A stretch of DNA of 64,000 bases from a virus. Both the position numbers and the translations under genes were made by a program. Within the stretch, counting starts at the first letter, position 1, and each line of letters begins with the position of its first letter. This document shows, piece after piece, positions 16,738-57,360 of this stretch. The notes beneath the pieces were generated by a model. That model was not told the origin of the DNA. It did not search any database and worked only from the letters and a program-made list of their open reading frames with translations. The stretch lies in the UHGV virus genome UHGV-0180032, one strand, 5' to 3'.

Positions 16738-16947
16738 TTAGTCTTTTTTGTAGACGATCGCGTTACCGTGCAGTTTGTTGTTACCGGAAATACCGATAAC
16801 TTTAAACGCTTCACCGCCGATCTTTTCAGCTTCGACAGCCAGCTTAGCAGTAACGTCGTCTACGGTGTCACCGAAAGCGCTTACGTTACCAATTTTCTTG
16901 AACTCTTCAGGAATGTGTTCGGCAGAAGAGAATTCTTTAATAGCCAT
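16738..16947 (-). CDS. BhsA/YdgH-like (DUF1471) small protein lacking a signal peptide
   Basis: 69-aa ORF with GGAGAG RBS; C-terminal ...KVIGISGNNKLHGNAIVYKK resembles the BhsA/YcfR ...SFRITSVTGPNTLHGTAVIYK motif as recalled from memory; no N-terminal hydrophobic leader. Confidence 0.5.
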   Translation of the reverse strand: MAIKEFSSAEHIPEEFKKIGNVSAFGDTVDDVTAKLAVEAEKIGGEAFKVIGISGNNKLHGNAIVYKKD

Positions 16948-17147
16948 AGCTACTCTCCAGTTAAAGAAAGGAAGGACTGTATCGTGTTACAACCAAAGCA
17001 TAAGATAGCTCCTCCCGGAAGGGAGGAGTAGAGTGCGCGAAAAAAGTGGCCTGCTTAACTAAACGACGAGGTTTAAGAAAAGTGTTGATAAGAAGCTTAC
17101 CAACGTCAGGTCACAATATATAATACCAACGTAAGAAAAAGGGGAAA

Positions 17148-18113
17148 TTAGCGCGGGCCTGAAGTTGGACCATGTACACCGTCGTGGATGTGTACGCTGA
17201 AGGTAATACCGGAAATCACCGCATCCTTAACCGTAAAGACACCCACACCTTCACCCGTACCACCGTATTTGAAGTTCTTAGCAACTTCCAAATTACCGGT
17301 GAACATTGCTTCATTACCCTCTTGCTTAAAGTTCGGCGTTTTATACGTTGTGGAACCGGAGGCTTCGGTTAGCCACGTTTCTGTTTTAAAGGTAACCGAT
17401 TTCGACGCTTCGGTATTCCGAACTTCGCATTTCTCATTAATCGTTTTCGTTTCCAGGTTAATCGAACGTTTTGCGTAAATGAACGCATCCTCTTTGTTGA
17501 TGTTCACTTTCGAGAGCATCGCGTTCTCAAAACCTAAATCGTCTTCCACCGAGTTAATGTAATACTTATTCCCTTTATGGTCAACGCACTGCCACGATCC
17601 GTTAGCGTTATCGAATTGGAATAACCACGCCGCTTTCTCCCCGTTCACCATGCTTGTTCTTAGGGTAACGTGTTTGTCAATCGTTGAGACGTTTAACACA
17701 TACGCGTTCGACAAGTCATCCGCCATCTGGTTTTCAGGGTCAGCAGACCACGCGTAAACCGCATCCTCTAATCGCTTAACGTTAGCGAAATTCAAATCAA
17801 TCCAAAAATAAATATCAGTTTGCCCTAGACGTAGCAGAATAACGTAATCTTCACGCTTAACGTCTGGGGAATTAATTCGGTTGGAATTAAACTTCCACCA
17901 CTTTGCAGTAATCGTGTTACCGGTTTTAATCGTTAGGTTGTCGGTAGCACCCCCGGCTTCGTGTACCTTTTCAGCGGTTGAAGAAACGGATTGTACAACG
18001 GTAGGGTTCGCAAAGTTGGTTTCAATGGGAATAACACTCACCCGATCCGTACCACGAGGTTTATCTTCCGCGACGATACCAATCGAGAAAAAGTCAACGC
18101 TGGATTTCTCCAT
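17148..18113 (-). CDS. hypothetical protein (321 aa), possibly virion-associated
   Basis: ORF on the structural-gene strand; C-terminal H-x-H-x-G-x-H-GP motif; no assignable domain. Confidence 0.45.
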   Translation of the reverse strand: MEKSSVDFFSIGIVAEDKPRGTDRVSVIPIETNFANPTVVQSVSSTAEKVHEAGGATDNLTIKTGNTITAKWWKFNSNRINSPDVKREDYVILLRLGQTDIYFWIDLNFANVKRLEDAVYAWSADPENQMADDLSNAYVLNVSTIDKHVTLRTSMVNGEKAAWLFQFDNANGSWQCVDHKGNKYYINSVEDDLGFENAMLSKVNINKEDAFIYAKRSINLETKTINEKCEVRNTEASKSVTFKTETWLTEASGSTTYKTPNFKQEGNEAMFTGNLEVAKNFKYGGTGEGVGVFTVKDAVISGITFSVHIHDGVHGPTSGPR

Positions 18114-18132
18114 TAGGTCGTTCCTTAGATCG

Positions 18133-18155
18133 GAAATGTAATCAGATATATTTTA
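18133..18155 (+). promoter_or_regulatory. conserved promoter-like motif, copy 1
   Basis: CAGATATATTTTACTTAGGTGAG; immediately followed by a 10-bp-stem hairpin (18157-18183). Confidence 0.4.
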
Positions 18156-18501
18156 CTTAGGTGAGTAGGGGCTGAACTCGCACTTCAGCCCCTATGGGCA
18201 CGTTTCTTTCGAAACGGAGTTACCACGTGATTAGGAGACAGACCAATGTCTACTGAGAAGAAAAGCGGATTGGACGAAGTCATCGAACTGTTCAAACGCT
18301 ACAACCCGGCTATTCCTCGGTAATCATAGTATTACTTAAAATTTACAGATTGACCCTTTATTCTGCTACTCGGGATACCGGTAGGGGGTAGGGGGCAATA
18401 TGTATACGGATATAAATAGCGGAGGTATACGTAGTATACCGACATACTCTTCCCAGAGGAACGTAGTGACTTCCTTATTCCTTTTTAGGAGAATAAACCC
18501 C

Positions 18502-19239
18502 ATGAGAGACTTAATTGACGATATCTTTACCAATACCAGTTTAGAGCTTTCTTCTACGGTGGTTAACGATCTAATAGGGCAACCGTATCCTGCTAAGTTA
18601 ATGTCAGTCGGTACCATTAAACCCGAAGATTATCCAGACAATGACATTATCGACTGTATAATTGACGAATACACGATAGCCAGTTACGCCAGCCGGGTCT
18701 TCTTTGTTCTTAATAGCGAAACCAGTGTCATTTTAATCTATAAGTTGATTAGTGGTGCTGAACTTGAAGTTGTAGCCGACCACATTCGTCTTATTGCGAG
18801 TACGATTGATGATTTCGCTGTTGCGCTTTTTGGAGACAGTTGGCCTTTGCAACCCCTGTTCGCTTACTTCCCACTGTTTAAGCATGGAATAGGGTTAATC
18901 CGACATACAGAAACCCTTCCCGATAACGTAGAGCTATCGCTGCTTGGACCCGGCATCGATCTTTATCCATTAAAAGACGAGGGCACGCTATATGGTTTGC
19001 GCATTTATGTTTCTCTGTTAGAGGGATACCGCGTTATTGAATTGATTGCATCAGATTTAGCAAAACAGATCCCTGAAGTAGAAACGATTTCTAAAGCCAC
19101 CCACCAGGTTGAGATTAACCTAGGCGATCCCTTATTGAAATATCACAAAGAAATTGACCTTCGTAAAATCGCCACAACAAGAGGGTGGGGGTGTGCTGAG
19201 GTTACGAATGGCTATCTGTTATTAATTAAAACCGCGTAA
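18502..19239 (+). CDS. hypothetical protein; member of a tandem paralog family with C-terminal GW...LL motif
   Basis: ATG at 18502 with AGGAGA upstream; alternative ATG at 18400 possible; C-terminus RGWGCAEVTNGYLLLIKTA resembles the ends of the next three genes. Confidence 0.45.
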   Translation: MRDLIDDIFTNTSLELSSTVVNDLIGQPYPAKLMSVGTIKPEDYPDNDIIDCIIDEYTIASYASRVFFVLNSETSVILIYKLISGAELEVVADHIRLIASTIDDFAVALFGDSWPLQPLFAYFPLFKHGIGLIRHTETLPDNVELSLLGPGIDLYPLKDEGTLYGLRIYVSLLEGYRVIELIASDLAKQIPEVETISKATHQVEINLGDPLLKYHKEIDLRKIATTRGWGCAEVTNGYLLLIKTA

Positions 19240-19264
19240 GTAAAAACCTAAAGGAGAAAATATC

Positions 19265-19804
19265 ATGATTAGTATCGAAATGAAACAACAAGTTATTGAA
19301 TTTATTAACCGGGGCGTGGGTAAACATCGTTTTGAAAACCCGTACAATATATTGTCTAACGTTATCCAACCGGGTACATTGATCACTGGTATTGAAGTAG
19401 AAAAAATCAGCGAAGATGCTGTGCTTTATTATCGCGGTTACGGGGATAGCTTTACCGAATTATTCCGTAAACTGTTTTCCGGTACCGGATGGAAAGTGAC
19501 GAGCGCGTCCTACGACGGTGGCGCGGATGTTGTTACGCTTCTAGACACGGGGAAAGCACTCTATATCGTGAACTTTACTTTCGCAAGACGCTACGCGTAT
19601 TTCCCGAACCCTCTTACGTGTACGTTAAGTAACCCAGGATTACTGTTGACAGATAAAGAAGCGGAAACACTACTTACAGAACTGAAGAAGGACGGTTGCG
19701 ACGCTGGCGATTGGGAAACATTGGTAGGGACAGCAAAAGCACACGGTTGGTATACCGTGCGTAATCTCGGTCAGCAGTTGTTGTTCTTAGCTTATAATGT
19801 TTAA
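19265..19804 (+). CDS. hypothetical protein; paralog family (C-terminal HGWYTVRNLGQQLLFLA)
   Basis: 179-aa ORF, AAAGGAGA RBS; shared C-terminal motif. Confidence 0.55.
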   Translation: MISIEMKQQVIEFINRGVGKHRFENPYNILSNVIQPGTLITGIEVEKISEDAVLYYRGYGDSFTELFRKLFSGTGWKVTSASYDGGADVVTLLDTGKALYIVNFTFARRYAYFPNPLTCTLSNPGLLLTDKEAETLLTELKKDGCDAGDWETLVGTAKAHGWYTVRNLGQQLLFLAYNV

Positions 19805-19815
19805 AGGATAATATC

Positions 19816-20943
19816 ATGCATATTTGCCATAACGCACCGTCGCACAGACTTTATCTTGAAATGCTTTTCGAGGACTACAAGAAAGGGGTGCCGAAAATAT
19901 TACTTAGCATCTCAGGTGCCACGCAAACTGAATTGTTCGGTCGTGTTTTTGGTTGTACCGTTAACGCTTTGCCAGAACCAATCTGTGCACCTGTGGATGT
20001 TTGTGTTTTCGACGAGCGAATTGAGGATTTTCAATTCACCTTTTACGTAAATGATTCTTTACCGTACGACAAACTTTACGTTCGTGAGTTGAAATCAAAT
20101 CAGCGGTTAATGTACCGCGTCTATCCACCCCACAAATGGTCGGTGCTAGAGTATAAAATCAGGCGGCTACCTTACGAGGGTGTGCAATTACTCGACCAGC
20201 AGGATATGGCTTTTCTGGAAGAACTTTGCGGATTTGAAATTGAGAAGATTCACGTAACCCAGGAAATATCCCGAAACGTACCTAGTCGTCATACCCCTAA
20301 CGGTGGATTTCCGTACGAGTTCACCGACACAGGACTAAGGCTCGTAACCGAATTTAACGACGTAATGTATTACGCAGTGTGTATTGAACGTAAAGTAGTG
20401 GAGAAAGAAATGGCAAGTACATTGAAAGAAGAATTAGCCCAATTCATTCGTGATGTTGAAGAGAAAAGCAAGAGCGATCACATATTCTCACAACGCTATC
20501 CTGAACTTATTGACGAAACCACCGATAGTGTCGTCGACGGTATACGCATTTTCCCAAGTGGTCTTGCAATCTACCGACTACCTAGCGTTAACCAGCTTAA
20601 AGTCATGGAAATGCTAAAAGACGTTTTAGCAGAAGCGGGTTGGGAATATCGCTTCGATTGCAATTTCGAAGGGATGGCGTTATTCGTTACAAAGAAAAAC
20701 TATACCTTGTCAATCGATCTACCTAAAAGTCAATATTACAGTTTCTTCCCGAAAGCGGATGACCGCACTGAAAAAGAACCTGCGATGTTACTTGATGCGG
20801 CAGAATCCAATACGTTAATGGTGCGTCTGCGGTCAATTGACAAAAAGTTAAACACCAGTCATTTAACGACGATCGGTAAAGATTACGGTTGGAAATCTGT
20901 CGAACCGTACGGCAGTCAGCTGCTGTTTGTTGCTGACCTTTAA
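19816..20943 (+). CDS. hypothetical protein; paralog family (C-terminal YGWKSVEPYGSQLLFVA)
   Basis: 375-aa ORF; shared C-terminal motif; followed by a terminator hairpin. Confidence 0.55.
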   Translation: MHICHNAPSHRLYLEMLFEDYKKGVPKILLSISGATQTELFGRVFGCTVNALPEPICAPVDVCVFDERIEDFQFTFYVNDSLPYDKLYVRELKSNQRLMYRVYPPHKWSVLEYKIRRLPYEGVQLLDQQDMAFLEELCGFEIEKIHVTQEISRNVPSRHTPNGGFPYEFTDTGLRLVTEFNDVMYYAVCIERKVVEKEMASTLKEELAQFIRDVEEKSKSDHIFSQRYPELIDETTDSVVDGIRIFPSGLAIYRLPSVNQLKVMEMLKDVLAEAGWEYRFDCNFEGMALFVTKKNYTLSIDLPKSQYYSFFPKADDRTEKEPAMLLDAAESNTLMVRLRSIDKKLNTSHLTTIGKDYGWKSVEPYGSQLLFVADL

Positions 20944-20969
20944 TAAGTGAAAATACACTTTCTCTAACT

Positions 20970-20994
20970 GCCGCGCTTTAGTCGCGGCTTTTGT
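20970..20994 (+). terminator. intrinsic terminator
   Basis: GCCGCG/CGCGGC stem followed by TTTTG. Confidence 0.5.
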
Positions 20995-21010
20995 TAAGAA
21001 GGAAATAGAA

Positions 21011-21784
21011 ATGAAAGTCCATTTAGACGACCTCTTTAAAACTGAACCGTATATGGTTAAAGGTTCATTGGCTTCACTGTTGTTAGATGATAGATTTCAT
21101 CGAACGCTCCAATTACAATCGGTCGAATCCGCACCAACAGAAGACGTGGGTCTTTATCAACGTATCACTTATACACGCGGAGAATATCGGCGATATAAAC
21201 CTGATACGCTAACCGTTAAGCTCTGGCAAGTGGCCACAGGCAAAGTATTAACTTATCGCACTGTTGGTCTGTACTACGTTGAACGTGCCTACGCGTGGTT
21301 AGAAGAAGTTAAAGAAATGGATTACGACCGCTTAAGCAAAAGACTGCGCGATAACAACGCCAGTTTACCGATACGCAATTATTTCTCCACAATTGAAAAT
21401 AGTCGTTGTTTCGTTTCACGCGAATCCATGATATTGCCTGGGGCTGATGTTCAGACGACACTAAAAGATGTGGTTGTGAGGAAAATCTTTCATGAATCTG
21501 AACACGTTGGATTTCGTATCTATTTAACTCACAAGAGGCCATTTACCGTGATTCATCTTGTTACCGTACCCGAAGGCTCAGCGGTCGTACGTGAACTTCC
21601 TGACGCACGTGACCGTAGTCCTAATGAGCCGCTTTACTTAATGTCAGGAACAAAATCAGAATCTTTGATGTCCCGTTACAGCATGGTTGATGTTGTTGAT
21701 ACTGCTATGAAGTTAGGTTGGAAAGAAGTACAGCAGCACGGCAAACAATTGCTGTTTATCGCAGATGTAAATCTCAATAACTAA
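21011..21784 (+). CDS. hypothetical protein; paralog family (C-terminal LGWKEVQQHGKQLLFIA)
   Basis: 257-aa ORF with GAAGGAAA RBS; shared C-terminal motif. Confidence 0.55.
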   Translation: MKVHLDDLFKTEPYMVKGSLASLLLDDRFHRTLQLQSVESAPTEDVGLYQRITYTRGEYRRYKPDTLTVKLWQVATGKVLTYRTVGLYYVERAYAWLEEVKEMDYDRLSKRLRDNNASLPIRNYFSTIENSRCFVSRESMILPGADVQTTLKDVVVRKIFHESEHVGFRIYLTHKRPFTVIHLVTVPEGSAVVRELPDARDRSPNEPLYLMSGTKSESLMSRYSMVDVVDTAMKLGWKEVQQHGKQLLFIADVNLNN

Positions 21785-22379: not shown

Positions 22380-22410
22380 GGTGGGGTGTAAGCCCCACCT
22401 TTTATTTTTT
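22380..22410 (+). terminator. intrinsic terminator
   Basis: GGTGGGG/CCCCACC stem followed by TTTTATTTTTT. Confidence 0.7.
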
Positions 22411-22434: not shown

Positions 22435-22457
22435 CAGATATATATTACTCAGGTGAG
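22435..22457 (+). promoter_or_regulatory. conserved promoter-like motif, copy 2
   Basis: CAGATATATATTACTCAGGTGAG; followed by hairpin 22456-22474; upstream of the secreted-protein gene cluster. Confidence 0.4.
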
Positions 22458-24725: not shown

Positions 24726-24763
24726 GACCCCGGTTCGTGCCGATTCGTCCGGGGTCCTTTTTA
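24726..24763 (+). terminator. intrinsic terminator
   Basis: GACCCCGG/CCGGGGTC stem followed by CTTTTT. Confidence 0.65.
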
Positions 24764-24792
24764 CGACTTGTTTTACCTAAAGGAGAATTAAA

Positions 24793-28522: not shown

Positions 28523-28706
28523 TTGGTGGCGTCAGTTACTAAGCGTTTTAGGGTTTAGCGTCATGGTACTGGTTGCCATTCTGTACGTGCTATTTTGTAT
28601 AACGGCGATTTTATGGGTGGTCTTAGCGTACGCGATTAGACTCGCCTGGGGTTCAATTTGGCACCAACGCGAATGTGAGTGGCGGTGTGTTGGAGGGAAG
28701 TCATGA
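28506..28706 (+). CDS. small membrane protein
   Basis: TTG start preceded by AAGGAGT; single strong hydrophobic helix; overlaps the end of the Rad50-like gene. Confidence 0.35.
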   Translation: MSTQTDWWRQLLSVLGFSVMVLVAILYVLFCITAILWVVLAYAIRLAWGSIWHQRECEWRCVGGKS

Positions 28707-28813
28707 TTGAGGGTATTCTGTTAACACTTGGGTCGTTGTGGATTATTGGGAAATCCCTCAACTGGCTGATTAATAAGTACGGATGGGCTTTCAAAGGCTC
28801 TACGCACAGTTAA
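28703..28813 (+). CDS. small hydrophobic protein (36 aa)
   Basis: ATGA overlap with the previous ORF; GGAGGGAAG RBS; hydrophobic ...GILLTLGSLWIIG... Confidence 0.3.
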   Translation: MIEGILLTLGSLWIIGKSLNWLINKYGWAFKGSTHS

Positions 28814-28820
28814 GTTAGAA

Positions 28821-28851
28821 CCCCCTCCTGGGTAACTGGGAGGGCGTTTTA
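28821..28851 (+). terminator. intrinsic terminator (weak)
   Basis: CCCTCC/GGAGGG stem followed by CGTTTT. Confidence 0.4.
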
Positions 28852-28863
28852 CGAGGGGAAACC

Positions 28864-28992
28864 ATGACTGTTGTCAATACTACCAATGCTGCAATTGGCG
28901 CTTTATACAACGCGGAACTAACATGGGGTGCGGGATTTATTACCGTACTGCTTCTCGCCGCAGCCGCTTTTATCATTGGACGTTGGTTTTAA
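28864..28992 (+). CDS. small membrane protein (42 aa)
   Basis: GAGGGGAAACC before ATG; C-terminal helix GFITVLLLAAAAFIIGRWF. Confidence 0.3.
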   Translation: MTVVNTTNAAIGALYNAELTWGAGFITVLLLAAAAFIIGRWF

Positions 28993-29024
28993 TTTCATCT
29001 TTTTGCGTCTGTAAGGTCTGATAA

Positions 29025-32009: not shown

Positions 32010-32047
32010 CCCCTAATCCGATTGGATTAGGGGTACTTTTATTTATT
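32010..32047 (+). terminator. intrinsic terminator
   Basis: CCCCTAATCC/GGATTAGGGG stem with GATT loop followed by a T-rich tract. Confidence 0.7.
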
Positions 32048-32066
32048 CCCCTAAAGGAGCAAAGCT

Positions 32067-33551: not shown

Positions 33552-33585
33552 CCCTACTCCTCCGGGAGTAGGGTTATTCTTTTTT
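33552..33585 (+). terminator. intrinsic terminator (CCCTACTCC family)
   Basis: CCCTACTCC/GGAGTAGGG stem followed by TTATTCTTTTTT. Confidence 0.75.
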
Positions 33586-33603
33586 CCATCTTAGGAGTAT
33601 TAA

Positions 33604-37189: not shown

Positions 37190-37230
37190 GCCTCCTGTAT
37201 CCTTCGGGATACAGGAGGTATTTTCTTTTT
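37190..37230 (+). terminator. intrinsic terminator
   Basis: 12-bp stem CCTCCTGTATCC/GGATACAGGAGG with TTCG loop followed by TATTTTCTTTTT. Confidence 0.8.
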
Positions 37231-37272
37231 AACGTTTAACCCCCTTCTAATGTATAGAGAAAGGAGCTTAAC

Positions 37273-45221: not shown

Positions 45222-45318
45222 TTAAAACCTCGGATTATAAGTCAGGGTTACATAGTAAAGTCTTTTTACAGTTCATCCTGAACTTATGACCGAGATTATC
45301 TCATAAAGGTAAAGCTCG

Positions 45319-48837: not shown

Positions 48838-49255
48838 TGGACTTCACGTCAATTTGTTCGCCAACCGGAGCCAACTCCCCTTCCGAGATTTCTACGTTAG
48901 GAATGTCTGGAAGGGTGGGTTGGTAACTATTATTTTCATCAGGTTCTTCGTCGTGACGTTTTATTTTCACGTTGCCACGCTGCATCAGAATCGTATTCAG
49001 TGCGTTAGCCAAGTCTTGGTTCGCTTCACTGTTTTTCTGGGCAGCGGCAACACGACGTTTAGAAATGATTTGCTTATCTAGGTCGTTTAATAACGTCCCG
49101 ATACGATCCACGGTCTTTAAGTCTTTGTGAGCATTAGGATCGTCTAAGATTAGATTGACAATTCTGACACGAGCTTGTTGCGTTTGGCGGAGAAGCGATT
49201 CTTCGTCGTCTACTTCACCATCTAACGCCTGGTATTTCACTTCTTCTTCAGCCAT
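48791..49255 (-). CDS. hypothetical acidic protein (154 aa)
   Basis: Minus-strand ORF with GAGGTGG RBS; convergently overlaps 48115-48837 by 47 nt. Confidence 0.45.
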   Translation of the reverse strand: MAEEEVKYQALDGEVDDEESLLRQTQQARVRIVNLILDDPNAHKDLKTVDRIGTLLNDLDKQIISKRRVAAAQKNSEANQDLANALNTILMQRGNVKIKRHDEEPDENNSYQPTLPDIPNVEISEGELAPVGEQIDVKSIMTAAFARPSSDEPD

Positions 49256-49284
49256 TTAAAACCACCTCATTTTCAAAAAGAAGT

Positions 49285-49310
49285 CAGACAGATATTATTT
49301 ACGTGAGACA
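49285..49310 (+). promoter_or_regulatory. conserved promoter-like motif, copy 4
   Basis: CAGACAGATATTATTTACGTGAGACA; upstream of gene 49328. Confidence 0.35.
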
Positions 49311-49327
49311 TTCTTTCGGAGTGAATT

Positions 49328-53488: not shown

Positions 53489-53528
53489 TACCCTACTCCT
53501 AGACAGGAGTAGGGTATTTTCATTTTTT
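53489..53528 (+). terminator. intrinsic terminator (CCCTACTCC family)
   Basis: TACCCTACTCC/GGAGTAGGGTA stem followed by TTTTCATTTTTT. Confidence 0.75.
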
Positions 53529-53548
53529 ACCCTAAAGGAGAATTTACC

Positions 53549-56893: not shown

Positions 56894-56924
56894 TTAGAAC
56901 CTATCACATTCGAGTGGAAATCTA

Positions 56925-57149
56925 ATGAAGAAGCCACGCTTTCACAGCCTGAGATACTTTACAGGTACTCTATATTTTATTGGCTACAACCGTGTGCGTA
57001 AGGGTCCTGGTAAATCGAAGATGCGCATCGTGCGATATAAAGAGACGCCACCAGGTCTAGCACCGATGGCGAAACTTCTGTCGCCGTTCGCTAACCTTAA
57101 AATCAAAACTGTTAACCCCTTTGTAAGAAATTTGGAAACTAAAAAATGA
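56925..57149 (+). CDS. small basic protein (74 aa)
   Basis: ORF, Lys/Arg-rich. Confidence 0.4.
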   Translation: MKKPRFHSLRYFTGTLYFIGYNRVRKGPGKSKMRIVRYKETPPGLAPMAKLLSPFANLKIKTVNPFVRNLETKK

Positions 57150-57289
57150 CTGAAGAAGTTAAAGTAGAAACCGTTAAAGAAACTGACGAATTTGCAATCC
57201 CTGGCTTAGACCCGGAAGCTACCGTAGAGAAGGGTGCTGACCCAACTACAGAAGACGATAACTGCTCAGGCGGGGCTTGCAAAATTTAA
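57146..57289 (+). CDS. small acidic peptide (47 aa) ending CSGGACKI
   Basis: ATGA-coupled to the upstream ORF; MTEEVKVETVKETDEFAIPGLDPEATVEKGADPTTEDDNCSGGACKI; strong terminator immediately downstream. Confidence 0.35.
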   Translation: MTEEVKVETVKETDEFAIPGLDPEATVEKGADPTTEDDNCSGGACKI

Positions 57290-57297
57290 CAGTTCAC

Positions 57298-57338
57298 GGG
57301 GTGCTTATGTAGCACCCCTAATCTTTATTCTTTTTTTT
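57298..57338 (+). terminator. intrinsic terminator
   Basis: GGGGTGCT/AGCACCCC stem followed by a T8 tract. Confidence 0.75.
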
Positions 57339-57360
57339 GTTAATCTAATGGAGTTTTAGA

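Follow-up and report, generated by a model that had tools for sequence, protein, structure and literature searches.

What does a jumbo phage keep between a baseplate gene and the divergent gene beside it? We examined this question in a 64,000-nt stretch of phage DNA (hereafter the window), in which positions 18114–18501 lie between two such genes (Table 1). The phage is a jumbo phage with SPN3US, Asesino and phiEaH2 among its relatives, and homology and synteny place it in the phiKZ/SPN3US-like lineage rather than in the T4 group, with a megablast identity to SPN3US-group phages of only ~72%. A preliminary description had interpreted the gap as a regulatory hub, a small RNA or a leader peptide; that general idea finds support in a recurring early motif, protein-level conservation of a micro-ORF and a structured RNA present across the clade, but the specific readings given to individual motifs do not. 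The gap does separate divergent genes, although its status as the longest intergenic region is not secure, as three gaps exceed it in length on a map of ORFs of at least 90 aa (28523–29024, 48838–49327 and 56894–57360), each containing only short or doubtful ORFs. The locus is clearly syntenic with those of SPN3US and Asesino, whose records leave the spacer unannotated, and public records of related phages contained no annotated feature in the syntenic spacer. A tRNA search found none. The 245-aa downstream gene had no Pfam or PHROG match; by eye, its translation shares a C-terminal motif with those of the next three genes.

Comparison with related phage genomes, proposed in the preliminary description as a check, identified part of the gap (~18333–18486) as the best-conserved stretch of the whole locus. 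Over 18348–18467, identity was 0.92–1.00 in ten close relatives, whereas in the same comparison the flanking genes reached ~0.88 and 0.78 and the micro-ORF ~0.40. Across ~35 syntenic loci, the spacer of distant relatives spans ~155–300 nt and the conserved element abuts the baseplate gene start, whereas the window clade carries an extra 100–210 bp between the two. On balance, we favor a gap composed of two unrelated layers: an insert specific to the window's lineage (Layer A, 18143–18330) and an old conserved block (Layer B, ~18333–18486). The supposed regulatory hub is a recent insertion adjoining an ancient RNA.

Table 1. Features of the gap and its flanking genes, in window coordinates.
Feature	Position	Strand	Basis or remark
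Baseplate gene	17148–18113	−	phrog_3216 match
Gap	18114–18501		Between divergent genes
Early-type promoter motif CAGATATATTTTACTTAGGTGAG (putative)	18143–18165	+	Recurrence; intergenic matches in relatives
5′-proximal stem-loop, 11-bp stem, 7-nt loop	18166–18194	+	Compensatory changes; MFE fold
Second small leader hairpin, CGTTTC-TTTC-GAAACG	18201–18216	+	Read from sequence
Shine-Dalgarno (SD) sequence of micro-ORF, AGGAGA	18233–18238	+	Read from sequence
Micro-ORF MSTEKKSGLDEVIELFKRYNPAIPR, 25 codons	18246–18323	+	ORF list and sequence
TATG	18325–18328	−	Candidate late transcription start of baseplate gene
TACT, A-run and TTTAC(A/G) box	18333–18348	+	Candidate middle-type promoter
5′ pyrimidine tract CCCTTTATTCT	18354–18364	+	Possible pairing with G-run
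Helix P1, GNRA tetraloop GAUA	18366–18384	+	Covariation
G-run, GGGGG-TA-GGGGG	18384–18395	+	Conservation
Helix P2, weak in window phage	18399–18418	+	First GTATAC and TATAAATA inside
Helix P3	18421–18443	+	Second and third GTATAC inside
Helix P4 (GAGGAA-CGTAGTGAC-TTCCTT) and pyrimidine/U-rich tail ATTCCTTTTT	18456–18486	+	
SD sequence of downstream gene, AGGAGA	18487–18492	+	Read from sequence
Downstream gene, 245 aa	ATG 18502	+	ORF list and sequence

A covariance model (R1) was built solely from Machinavirus, Caitlin and L011 sequences, with the window clade left out. Because P1 and P2 were misaligned across clades in a MAFFT alignment, helices were specified on a well-aligned 8-sequence seed and the remaining sequences were aligned by Infernal, yielding 31 distinct rows. 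R1 matched the window at 18342–18454 on the plus strand (48.1 bits, E = 2e-8, model positions 1–122 of 122), with no second match within the 64 kb. At each of 35 loci it had exactly one match, in every case oriented away from the baseplate gene. When IMG/VR was scanned for the pattern and R1 was then applied, only SPN3US-like jumbo-phage contigs were recovered, and the pattern scan of bacterial genomes returned chance matches only, mostly in high-G+C taxa such as Streptomyces. The element is present in at least four phage genera (Seoulvirus, Erskinevirus, Machinavirus and Wellingtonvirus), with hosts in Salmonella, Erwinia, Escherichia and Proteus, and weakly in a fifth, Derbicusvirus; in SPN3US (NC_027402) it lies at ~161439–161557. 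Rfam 15 produced no match at gathering score across the whole window, and a search of 17500–19200 with E up to 10 returned a single chance SNORD98 match, outside the gap. Judged from these comparisons, Layer B is probably a previously undescribed folded RNA element common to the SPN3US-like group.

As modeled, the element would be a structured plus-strand RNA of ~115–140 nt, comprising in 5′-to-3′ order a pyrimidine tract, P1, a G5-N2-3-G5 run, P2, P3, an extra helix P4 in the window phage, and a pyrimidine/U-rich tail. In an alignment fitted to the model structure and composed of phylogenetically related sequences, 89.1% of cells in P1–P3 were paired compared to 68.6% in shuffles, none of 500 of which reached the observed value; the covariation score was 0.424 versus 0.138, 14 of the 20 pairs changed on both sides, and partners slid out of register as a control were 28–42% paired. 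All five modeled pairs of P1 change on both sides across clades, and its GNRA loops (GAAA, GGAA, GAUA, GAGA) recur in Machinavirus, Caitlin, L011 and Derbicusvirus. In P2, both sides change in 4/8 pairs; the helix is strong in SPN3US, Machinavirus, Caitlin and L011, weak in the window (−2.7 kcal/mol) and absent from phiEaH2, Asesino and Derbicusvirus. P3 consists of a G-C pair, possible tandem G.A/A.G pairs and a 7-bp stem (GGTATAC/GTATACC) closed by a GTA loop; 90% of its cells are paired, and 5 of its 7 pairs change on both sides. Its flanks, CGGAGG and CCGAC, are invariant and may form the tandem G.A pairs, and the inner stem covaries, with arms in relatives of GGTATCC/GGATACC, GGTGAC/GTCACC, GGTAGC/GCTACC, GGTACCC/GGGTACC and GGTACTCT/GAGTACC. 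The P4 and tail region is 82% identical to the syntenic Asesino spacer, and within IMG/VR the box AGGAACGNAGTGACNTCCTT is found as a single copy per genome.

The plus strand is favored by the excess of G.U/U.G over A.C/C.A among the pairs (36 versus 7). Lineages with a strong P2 also fold far better on the plus than on the minus strand (for example, −11.8 versus −3.9 kcal/mol). The whole-element fold had a z-score of only −1.9, and when 12 clade representatives were aligned with MAFFT alone, RNAalifold recovered only P3 and a helix between the 3′ G-block and UCCUU.

The G-rich direct repeat noted earlier is present as a tandem GTAGGGG at 18381–18394 and corresponds to the double G5 run, which is unique in the 64-kb window. 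The run occurs in every relative with a baseplate identity of at least 57%, with a variable spacer (TA, TAA, AAA, ACC or ATA, and AGA in Derbicusvirus). It could form 11 contiguous pairs with CCCTTTATTCT, and these appear in the minimum free energy (MFE) fold. Duplex energies of own-clade versus other-clade combinations, calculated for both the 5′ tract and the 3′ tail, revealed no advantage for a clade's own pair, and the RNAalifold helix between the 3′ G-block and UCCUU is invariant and therefore uninformative about the partner of the G-run. A two-tetrad G-quadruplex was rejected, as the first block has only four Gs in several clades.

This fold accounts for motifs that had been read as DNA signals. 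The three GTATAC palindromes are present (18402, 18425 and 18434), and the placement of 3 of the window's 15 such sites within 40 bp has P ~7e-4, a post hoc value that would favor an array bound by a regulator. In relatives, however, only the pairing is conserved and not the GTATAC sequence; the sites form the 5′ arm of P2 and both arms of P3, and the covariation of the P3 arms marks a helix rather than a sequence-specific binding site. The octamer TATAAATA, likewise present (18411–18418), is a literal match to the T4 late-promoter consensus, as had been pointed out, but it constitutes the 3′ arm of the weak P2 and is found only in the window clade, and the genome is SPN3US/phiKZ-like. Phages of that lineage use their own multisubunit polymerases with different promoters (PMC7598289). 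A regulator-binding array combined with a T4-type late promoter consequently retains very little probability.

Still less attaches to a protein-coding reading, in which the downstream gene would begin at ATG 18400 or a small protein would be encoded on one strand. The ATG is indeed in frame with the gene starting at 18502 and follows a G-rich, SD-like run, and the minus strand contains ORFs of 37 and 83 aa. The proposed extension is nonetheless not conserved: a 34-nt insertion between ATG 18400 and the gene breaks the frame in L005 and L013, and in L030 and L041 another gene lies downstream. Elsewhere in the group, the start codon past the G-run is absent or opens ORFs of 1–6 codons. Between clades, P2 and P3 differ in length by numbers of nucleotides not divisible by three, and conservation takes the form of covariation between paired arms, without third-base wobble.

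Layer A begins with the promoter-like motif of the preliminary description, which holds up well. A 21-mer starting at 18145 recurs at 22437 with two mismatches, against zero copies expected, and that second copy has a terminator before it and a gene after it. SPAsTU, phiEaH2 and Stratton carry exact matches of 22–23 nt in intergenic DNA that has no annotation, and the same motif precedes genes in L011, Phobos and CR5; in total, it was found in intergenic DNA of at least five related phages. A literature search for the promoter string returned nothing relevant. Promoters of the phiKZ type comprise an AT-rich early class with an extended −10, a middle class with TACT at approximately −22 and an A-rich repeat, and a late class with TATG (PMC7598289, PMC8244752). 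The Layer A motif is a conserved AT-rich sequence that recurs ahead of operons and follows terminators, and it is presumably an early promoter for the virion RNA polymerase, a class assigned from its likeness to the AT-rich early motifs known in jumbo phages (PMC7598289). For such a promoter, transcription would be expected to start ~10 nt 3′ of the motif center early in infection (PMC7598289). The motif sequences themselves are specific to this clade, and these promoter classes are analogies.

The hairpin of the preliminary description is real but had been misplaced, at 18157–18183 with a 10-bp stem. In its actual position it is recovered in the MFE fold, and its stem shows three different compensatory pair changes in close relatives (L003, L004 and L005/L013); some relatives have the loop flipped to its reverse complement. 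A hairpin also lies directly 3′ of the promoter copies at 22437 and in L011, Phobos and CR5, and in the terminator scan that of the window was not terminator-like. The second leader hairpin is kept in those window-clade relatives that have the micro-ORF. A Layer A transcript would start at the early promoter, carry a protective stem-loop at its 5′ end and contain an SD-led 25-codon gene, probably translated though dispensable.

The micro-ORF and its AGGAGA ribosome binding site are present as originally described. Its two allele types share 59% nucleotide identity and 12/25 residues, and both keep the 25 codons, the start and stop positions and the SD sequence; with pN at 0.35 and pS at 0.71, the micro-ORF looks protein-constrained. 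A frameshift at an A-run disrupts it in L013 and L031; L005, L032, L033 and L034 have lost it by deletion, and tblastn against sequenced phages found no homolog, only noise at E = 6. Neither retention in all close relatives nor coupling to a downstream structure in the manner of a leader peptide was observed, and its stop codon lies 30 nt upstream of the first paired segment of the element. From its sequence, it is probably a small, dispensable protein gene. Because the RNA element is unchanged in the four close relatives that have lost the micro-ORF, the alignments identify the two as separate modules and not one hub.

How might Layer B itself be transcribed? The phiKZ middle promoter has a TACT motif centered at −22 with an A-rich repeat (PMC8244752), and the TACT box at the head of the element is a candidate middle-type promoter by this likeness. 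Its (T/A)TTAC(A/G) portion is present in 31/31 distinct rows of the model alignment and lies 30–37 nt upstream of the G-run in most lineages, further in some Derbicusvirus. The three window-clade variants, which otherwise diverge, all retain TACT with an A-run behind it; in most relatives, a T-run takes the place of the A-run. Similar T-rich strings ending in AC also serve as terminator tails in the window phage, and a similar box lies in the divergent spacer 45222–45318. We rejected T-rich boxes ending in TAC as a promoter class, as those at 37226 and 53523 are terminator tails, so the box alone is no evidence of a promoter. No recognized early motif precedes the element in most clades. A literature search for SPN3US transcription maps returned nothing relevant, and we found no mapped transcription start for an SPN3US-like phage in the literature.

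The same box overlaps a possible minus-strand promoter sequence of the baseplate gene. The phiKZ late promoter is T(−3)ATG(+1) (PMC7598289), and the CATA in the window reads TATG on the baseplate strand, making it, by analogy, a candidate late start of that gene. CATA(C/G/T)TA adjoining the baseplate start is conserved in most clades, but the L005 and L013 types have lost the TATG. A second candidate, in which the G5 block together with a TATG past the G-run would form a late promoter, was rejected, as other clades have TCTG or TTTG at this position; the uniqueness of the double G5 in the window counts against it as well.

At the other end, the element resembles an intrinsic terminator in placing a hairpin (P3 or P4) before a pyrimidine/U-rich tail, but in the window the stem is short and G-C-poor and the U-run is interrupted. 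A simple terminator scan of 17500–19200 called no site. The tail (TTATTC TTTTT) resembles those of the clear terminators of the window phage, and in Caitlin GGAGG...CCTCC is followed by TTTATTCTTTTT; from the sequence, the 3′ end appears terminator-like but weak. The next gene differs by clade (a 105-aa gene, a 245-aa paralog, or others). In several clades it starts 15–50 nt past the tail, so termination, if any, must be leaky. In L011, Phobos and CR5, a terminator and/or early promoter, and no gene directly, follows the element. As for a riboswitch, there is no consistent class of downstream gene, and alternative pairing of the G-run is without support.

We propose that the element is transcribed rightward, away from the baseplate gene, from the TACT/TTTAC middle-type promoter in all lineages and additionally, in the window lineage, from the upstream early promoter. 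Transcripts would end in part at the weak terminator-like tail, with read-through expressing whichever gene follows, and the folded core would act by protein or polymerase binding or by base pairing, independently of any particular downstream gene. We lean toward interpreting Layer B as a leader-type small RNA. The comparisons establish the conservation of the element, its single copy, its fixed placement and orientation, the covariation of its helices and its strand; the promoter class, the transcript ends and all functional steps are inferred. In 201phi2-1, 5′ UTR-derived small RNAs generated by premature termination are the main reported class (PMC11512511).

Alternatively, the block may act as DNA, as a control region for the late promoter of the baseplate gene or for both divergent promoters, with phage proteins on the G-run and the CGGAGG/CCGAC boxes and with palindromes perhaps extruded as cruciforms. 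Such a role would suit the fixed position and orientation of the block beside the baseplate start in most clades, the invariance of the G-run and flanking boxes without a demonstrable covarying partner, and the near-total identity within the window clade, which extends to loop bases and exceeds what base pairing alone requires; the CATA(C)TA by the box could, moreover, be a phiKZ-type minus-strand late TATG (PMC7598289). Yet 100–210 bp have been inserted between block and baseplate gene in the window clade with the block unchanged, and the TATG is lost in the L005/L013 types with the block intact. The G.U excess, a P2 that folds only on the plus strand and the GNRA loops capping P1 are features of RNA, and the helix arms vary freely with pairing kept, unlike a sequence-specific site. 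We therefore judge a DNA element unlikely. A small but appreciable probability remains for a cis-acting leader that modifies polymerase or stabilizes the transcript, comparable to HK022 put or lambda nut, rather than a discrete small RNA. Like put and nut, the element would be a folded RNA just past a promoter at the head of a transcription unit, always the rightward one and whatever gene follows, with a core independent of gene identity. Its effect would be to carry the phage RNA polymerase past terminators further along the unit. Candidates in the window are a strong terminator at 22384 and, within the block of genes that follows the gap, a hairpin at ~20990 that resembles a terminator (GCCGCG...CGCGGC TTTTGTT). 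Against this, SPN3US, phiEaH2 and Asesino have a single 105-aa gene and then a fresh early promoter, and L011, Phobos and CR5 have a terminator or promoter directly after the element, leaving little to antiterminate and no long operon next in several clades. The element matches no Rfam family in sequence or structure, put included, and is present in one copy per locus and per 64-kb window despite many operons. We know of no put/nut-like RNA for a phage multisubunit polymerase.

A further reading, which we consider very unlikely, casts the element as a primer or R-loop-forming RNA of a replication origin. Here the invariant G5-N2-3-G5 run would lie on the RNA-like strand within ~35 nt of the promoter; its RNA would stay annealed to the C-rich DNA template, and the covarying helices would position it. 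Primer and R-loop RNAs operate at the origins of ColE1 (RNA II) and T4 (ori(uvsY) and ori(34)) and at mitochondrial CSB II, where G-runs likewise follow a promoter within tens of nucleotides on the RNA-like strand at a single-copy locus where transcription diverges. Covarying hairpins such as P1–P3 are, however, not required in the T4 and mitochondrial cases. GC skew was discarded as an origin signal, as it tracks the coding strand and has no discriminating power, and to our knowledge the origins of the SPN3US-like group are unmapped.

Returning to the leader-type small RNA, the closest parallels are the small structured RNAs conserved across phiKZ-related genera, namely sRNA005 of 201phi2-1 and the phiKZ sRNA upstream of gp182 (PMC11512511). 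Like the element, they are small, structured, shared across genera and located beside tail or baseplate genes. In 201phi2-1, small RNAs arise where a terminator lies close behind the transcription start, with read-through into the gene (PMC11512511), and the same mechanism is what we propose here. The two families nevertheless differ in placement. sRNA005 lies in the 5′ UTR of the gp182/gp277 tail gene, whereas the element diverges from its structural gene and sits beside a gene of the gp164/gp249 type. The baseplate homolog in 201phi2-1, gp249 (phiKZ gp164), has a 58-nt spacer without the element and is ~30 kb from gp277. An R1 search of both 201phi2-1 loci (L063 and L064) with E up to 10 returned no match; given this result and the different locus, identity with sRNA005 was rejected.

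Knowledge of non-coding RNA in phiKZ-related jumbo phages is sparse. One sRNA was predicted in phiKZ and could not be confirmed by Northern blot (PMC8244752), and it was not until 2024 that one small RNA was reported as shared between genera (PMC11512511). The element would be a second such family, better backed by comparative evidence, with a defined anatomy (P1 with its GNRA cap, the invariant double G-run, and P3 between invariant CGGAGG/CCGAC flanks) and a fixed site by a baseplate hub gene. A genetic system exists for SPN3US, which makes deletion and compensatory-mutation tests practical. The analysis also yields working promoter and terminator motifs for a clade without a transcription map. 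For the biology of these phages, the element may point the way to a factor that regulates or assists their unusual multisubunit RNA polymerases, the timing of virion-gene expression or, less likely, replication.

Aligning the gap with five close relatives, profiling conservation across ten and reading distant syntenic spacers directly indicate, on comparative grounds, that it combines a lineage-specific insert (Layer A) with a conserved structured RNA (Layer B), an explanation that, taken in full, we favor with some reserve. Across Seoulvirus, Erskinevirus, Wellingtonvirus and others, the spacer spans ~155-300 nt and a conserved block adjoins the baseplate start, running T-rich TTTAC(G/A) box, ~35 nt, GGGGG-N2-3-GGGGG, 10-25 nt, CGGAGG, hairpin, CCGAC(A/T)TCCTT(T)ATTC. 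In the window clade, an extra 100-210 bp separate this block, here Layer B, from the baseplate gene. Identity to the window among the ten close relatives is 0.92-1.00 across the block core, the highest in the 2 kb examined, compared with ~0.88 and ~0.78 in the flanking genes and ~0.40 in the micro-ORF region.

Coordinates of features in and around the gap
Feature	Position	Strand	Basis or remark
DUF1471 gene	16738-16947	-	Pfam PF07338 (E = 3e-10), phrog_8068
Baseplate gene	17148-18113	-	phrog_3216, 'baseplate assembly protein'
Gap	18114-18501		confirmed in sequence, with downstream ATG at 18502
Layer A	18143-18330		
Promoter-like motif CAGATATATTTTACTTAGGTGAG	18143-18165	+	recurrence
Hairpin	18166-18194		11-bp stem
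Hairpin loop	18177-18183		
25-codon micro-ORF	18246-18323		AGGAGA SD confirmed in sequence
Layer B	~18333-18486	+	
Covariance-model match	18342-18454	+	48 bits, E = 2e-8
Block core	18348-18467		
P1	18366-18384		
G-run	18384-18395		tandem GTAGGGG GTAGGGG confirmed in sequence
P2	18399-18418		
GTATAC	18402, 18425, 18434		confirmed in sequence
TATAAATA	18411-18418		confirmed in sequence
P3	18421-18443		
Four consecutive genes	18502-21784	+	245, 179, 375, 257 aa
Second motif copy	22437		2 mismatches
Clear intrinsic terminators	22384-22410, 24740-24770, 32030-32060, 33560-33600, 37195-37235, 53500-53530, 57300-57350		
Second divergent spacer	45222-45318		TATG on both strands
Other long gaps	28523-29024, 48838-49327, 56894-57360		467-502 bp

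The baseplate gene anchors these comparisons. Megablast of window 17000-20000 matched only the baseplate gene of SPN3US-group jumbo phages, at ~72% identity at best, and relatives that are near-identical or 93-99% identical are metagenomic contigs (~225 kb) only. By tblastn, the 321-aa product matched 290 jumbo-phage records, with protein identities of 73% for Stratton and phiEaH2 (the closest), 70% for Asesino, 63% for SPN3US, ~60% for Machinavirus and Caitlin, 57% for Wellingtonvirus and 43-46% for Derbicusvirus; its 201phi2-1 homolog is gp249, similar to phiKZ gp164. The spacer beside the gene carries no annotation in the public records of relatives examined. On its other side, between the baseplate gene and tail-fibre-like genes, lies a gene for a 69-aa YdgH/BhsA/McbA-like (DUF1471) protein, in a position kept in SPN3US, Asesino and Stratton. 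This family comprises bacterial stress and biofilm proteins, and finding one of its members amid clustered virion genes is odd. The four genes beyond the gap share a C-terminal motif, roughly GW..V...G.QLLF(I/L)A, and seem to be members of one local paralog family, of which the third and fourth have their matches in phrog_26772 and related PHROGs (function unknown) and the first is swapped for another gene in L030 and L041 (L-numbers denote syntenic loci or contigs from relatives).

Layer B is probably a functional plus-strand structured RNA. Eight sequences, all from Machinavirus, Caitlin or L011, went into a covariance model specifying three helices; searched against the window and 37 loci, it returned exactly one match in each locus, every one of them divergent from the baseplate gene. 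The window was recovered by this model, which excluded its clade, as were SPN3US, Asesino, phiEaH2, Kwan/Wellington, L027 and L055 (E 1e-9 to 4e-5) and, more weakly, L060 (E = 7e-3) and CR5 (E = 0.11). Conservation in related phage genomes, a point raised in the preliminary description, is found for this block across SPN3US-like clades. Among 31 distinct rows, standard pairs fill 89.1% of cells versus 68.6% in shuffles (reached by 0 of 500), 14 of 20 pairs change on both sides and the covariation score is 0.424 versus 0.138. With an alignment shaped by the model itself and rows that share ancestry, the shuffle figures count as strong support rather than as a probability. Sliding the partners lowers pairing to 28-42%.

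P3 is visible even without the model, as invariant flanks enclosing varying paired arms: GGTATAC-GTA-GTATACC in the window, GGTATCC-GTA-GGATACC in SPN3US, GGTGAC-AACG-GTCACC in phiEaH2, GGTAGC-GTCCCT-GCTACC in L039, GGTACTCT-ACA-GAGTACC in STsAS and GGTACCC-GGA-GGGTACC in SNUABM_29. Its CGGAGG/CCGAC flanks could pair as G-C, G.A, A.G, G-C, G-C, with a putative tandem G.A. Three features point to a plus-strand RNA: helices hold 36 G.U/U.G pairs versus 7 A.C/C.A pairs; P2 is much more stable on the plus than the minus strand (ChrisDB -11.8 versus -3.9, L039 -11.5 versus -3.7, SPN3US -8.8 versus -2.4); and GNRA tetraloops close P1 in several clades, with GAUA in the window and GAAA, GGAA or GAGA elsewhere. 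Elements of L009-L011, L039, L046 and L056-L059 carry three to four GATC sequences (GGATCGATC..., GGGGGATCTGTG, CATAGATC), which flank the G-run and form the P2 base; the window element has none. GATC is the Dam site.

The G-rich repeat of the preliminary description corresponds to the invariant G-run, which in the window could form 11-12 contiguous pairs with either a 5' tract, CCCUUUAUUCU, or a 3' tail, UUCCUUAUUCCU; swapping partners between clades revealed no clade-specific fit. The RNAalifold helix joining the 3' G-block to UCCUU never varies. If each G-block closed one domain, which is only a model, a variable, non-covarying G-run spacer would follow.

At the start of the element, all three window-clade variants retain TACT, an A-run and TTTAC, including those that have lost the neighbouring CATA. 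The phiKZ middle motif has TACT centred at -22 with an A-rich repeat (PMC8244752), and the window's box is similar, whereas most other clades have a T-run instead. A TATG-type late promoter belonging to the baseplate gene and read from the opposite strand (PMC7598289) may share part of the box, and comparable T-rich...AC strings are terminator tails elsewhere in the phage. A second divergent spacer in the window is arranged like the element start (CATAGTAAAG...CTTTTTACAG), with no G-run and no helices, and bears on the possibility that divergent late or middle promoters have the TTTAC box in common as one of their parts. At the other end, the element's tail resembles this phage's terminator tails; a GGAGG...CCUCC stem precedes it in Caitlin, and the window has a weak stem at a site uncalled by the terminator scan. 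In the clear intrinsic terminators, a G+C-rich stem is followed by a T(A)TT(C)TTTTTT(T/A)AC-type tail (e.g. TATTTTCTTTTTAAC, TTATTCTTTTTTCC, CTTTATTCTTTTTTTT), a shared pattern that might be used to model terminators across the clade. In Machinavirus (L009, L039, L042, L056-L059), the stretch 20-150 nt downstream of the element holds a TTGACC...CTTTTT(T)AC box and then, ahead of the next gene, a further conserved hairpin (GTATGGCGATGAGCCATAC and variants); this may be a second structured leader.

Layer A opens with a 21-nt promoter-like motif whose second copy (0 expected) directly follows a strong terminator, with the SD of the next gene 45 nt further on. SPAsTU, phiEaH2 and Stratton have exact 22-23-nt matches in spacers that carry no annotation, and close variants lie ahead of genes in L011, Phobos and CR5 and just downstream of a 105-aa gene in phiEaH2, Asesino and SPN3US. 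Because jumbo phages with their own polymerase each have an early motif of this kind, AT-rich and with its centre near -10 (PMC7598289), we infer a candidate early promoter with transcription starting near 18160. The hairpin directly behind it is real, ~10 nt to the right of where it had been placed, and shows three different compensatory changes among relatives (C-G to T-A, G-C to A-T and another G-C to A-T), with a half-change in L031. Since other motif copies are likewise followed by a hairpin, and this one has no U-run and is not terminator-like by the terminator scan, it seems to be a generic stem-loop at the 5' end of early transcripts, presumably stabilising. Its loop reads CTCGCAC in the window and GTGCGAG in L030, exact reverse complements between close relatives, as are GTACCAG in L005 and CTGGTAC in L032, an indication that inversion between the 11-bp repeat arms has happened repeatedly.

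Among the three allelic types of the micro-ORF, types 1 and 2 agree at 59% of nucleotides yet keep 25 codons, start, stop, SD and 12 of 25 residues (pN 0.35 versus pS 0.71, with pS saturated), a pattern that fits a translated small protein; no homologs were found in sequenced phages. In four relatives the ORF is wholly lost with Layer B unaltered, so it is dispensable and no leader peptide for the structure downstream. Type 3 (L013, L031) has lost the frame at an A-run, by +1 and -1 (~18246-18275 equivalent; ACTAAAAAAAGAAAG in L013, ACTAAAAAGAAAG in L031), which could reflect decay, assembly error or programmed slippage. A AAA AAG is a classic -1 slippery heptamer; L031 has it, and slipping by -1 at that site would give back a 25-aa homolog, MSTKKESHNELLKRLKDYTPFSTFR.

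The gap's features are not due to chance, given the motif's recurrence, the GTATAC cluster (P ~7e-4, a post hoc figure) and a double G5 run found once in the 64 kb window. The preliminary description was largely correct, and right in spirit about a regulatory RNA and a small ORF, but not in its specifics of a binding array, a T4 promoter and a gene extension. Calling the gap the longest intergenic region was unsafe: three stretches equal or exceed it, holding only short, overlapping or doubtful ORFs (none of at least 90 aa on a crude ORF map) and yielding no match with Rfam or ARAGORN.

Other readings fare less well. A GTATAC regulator-binding array with a T4 late promoter, as first proposed, is extremely unlikely: the sites are not conserved, the first GTATAC and TATAAATA being the two arms of P2 (weak in the window) and the second and third the arms of P3, and the T4 promoter fails on conservation and phage lineage. 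That the region is coding is almost certainly wrong; an in-frame ATG does exist at 18400, but the gene extension drawn from it conflicts with a 34-nt insertion in L005 and L013, differing downstream genes, other clades without a conserved ORF and length differences indivisible by three. Purely DNA-level control would suit the fixed position and invariant boxes, but insertion tolerance, G.U asymmetry, GNRA loops and arm covariation make it quite unlikely. An antitermination leader of the put/nut type is unlikely, its place at an operon head being apt but clades with almost nothing downstream misfitting. That the element supplies the primer or R-loop RNA of a replication origin is very unlikely; GC skew tracks gene strand only and lends it no support.

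The gene after the element is a 105-aa gene in SPN3US, Asesino and phiEaH2, the 245-aa paralog-family member in the window and another in L030/L041, often beginning 15-50 nt past the tail with no promoter between, whereas in L011, Phobos and CR5 a terminator and/or early promoter follows. A leader-type small RNA is the simplest reading covering both patterns. Transcription would start and meet a leaky stop close behind, with read-through into whatever lies downstream; in the window lineage the RNA would also be embedded in an early transcript from 18143. The folded core may act by protein or polymerase binding, or by base pairing. Eight of 11 sRNAs of giant phage 201phi2-1 belong to such a start-and-close-stop class (PMC11512511).

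The closest published counterparts, 201phi2-1 sRNA005 and the phiKZ RNA upstream of gp182, are likewise conserved small RNAs that neighbour tail genes in giant phages (PMC11512511), but sRNA005 lies at gp277 rather than at gp249 and differs in orientation, and our model found no match in either 201phi2-1 locus. Rfam yielded no family for the element, and no tRNAs were found. When IMG/VR was scanned with a degenerate pattern and the matches passed to the model, SPN3US-like jumbo contigs alone were recovered; the same pattern gave only chance matches in bacterial genomes, mostly in high-G+C taxa such as Streptomyces. The comparatively well-supported conclusion from these sequence comparisons is that the element represents a new structured RNA family confined to SPN3US-like jumbo phages. 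The value of the finding lies in this family, which is open to testing in SPN3US genetics.
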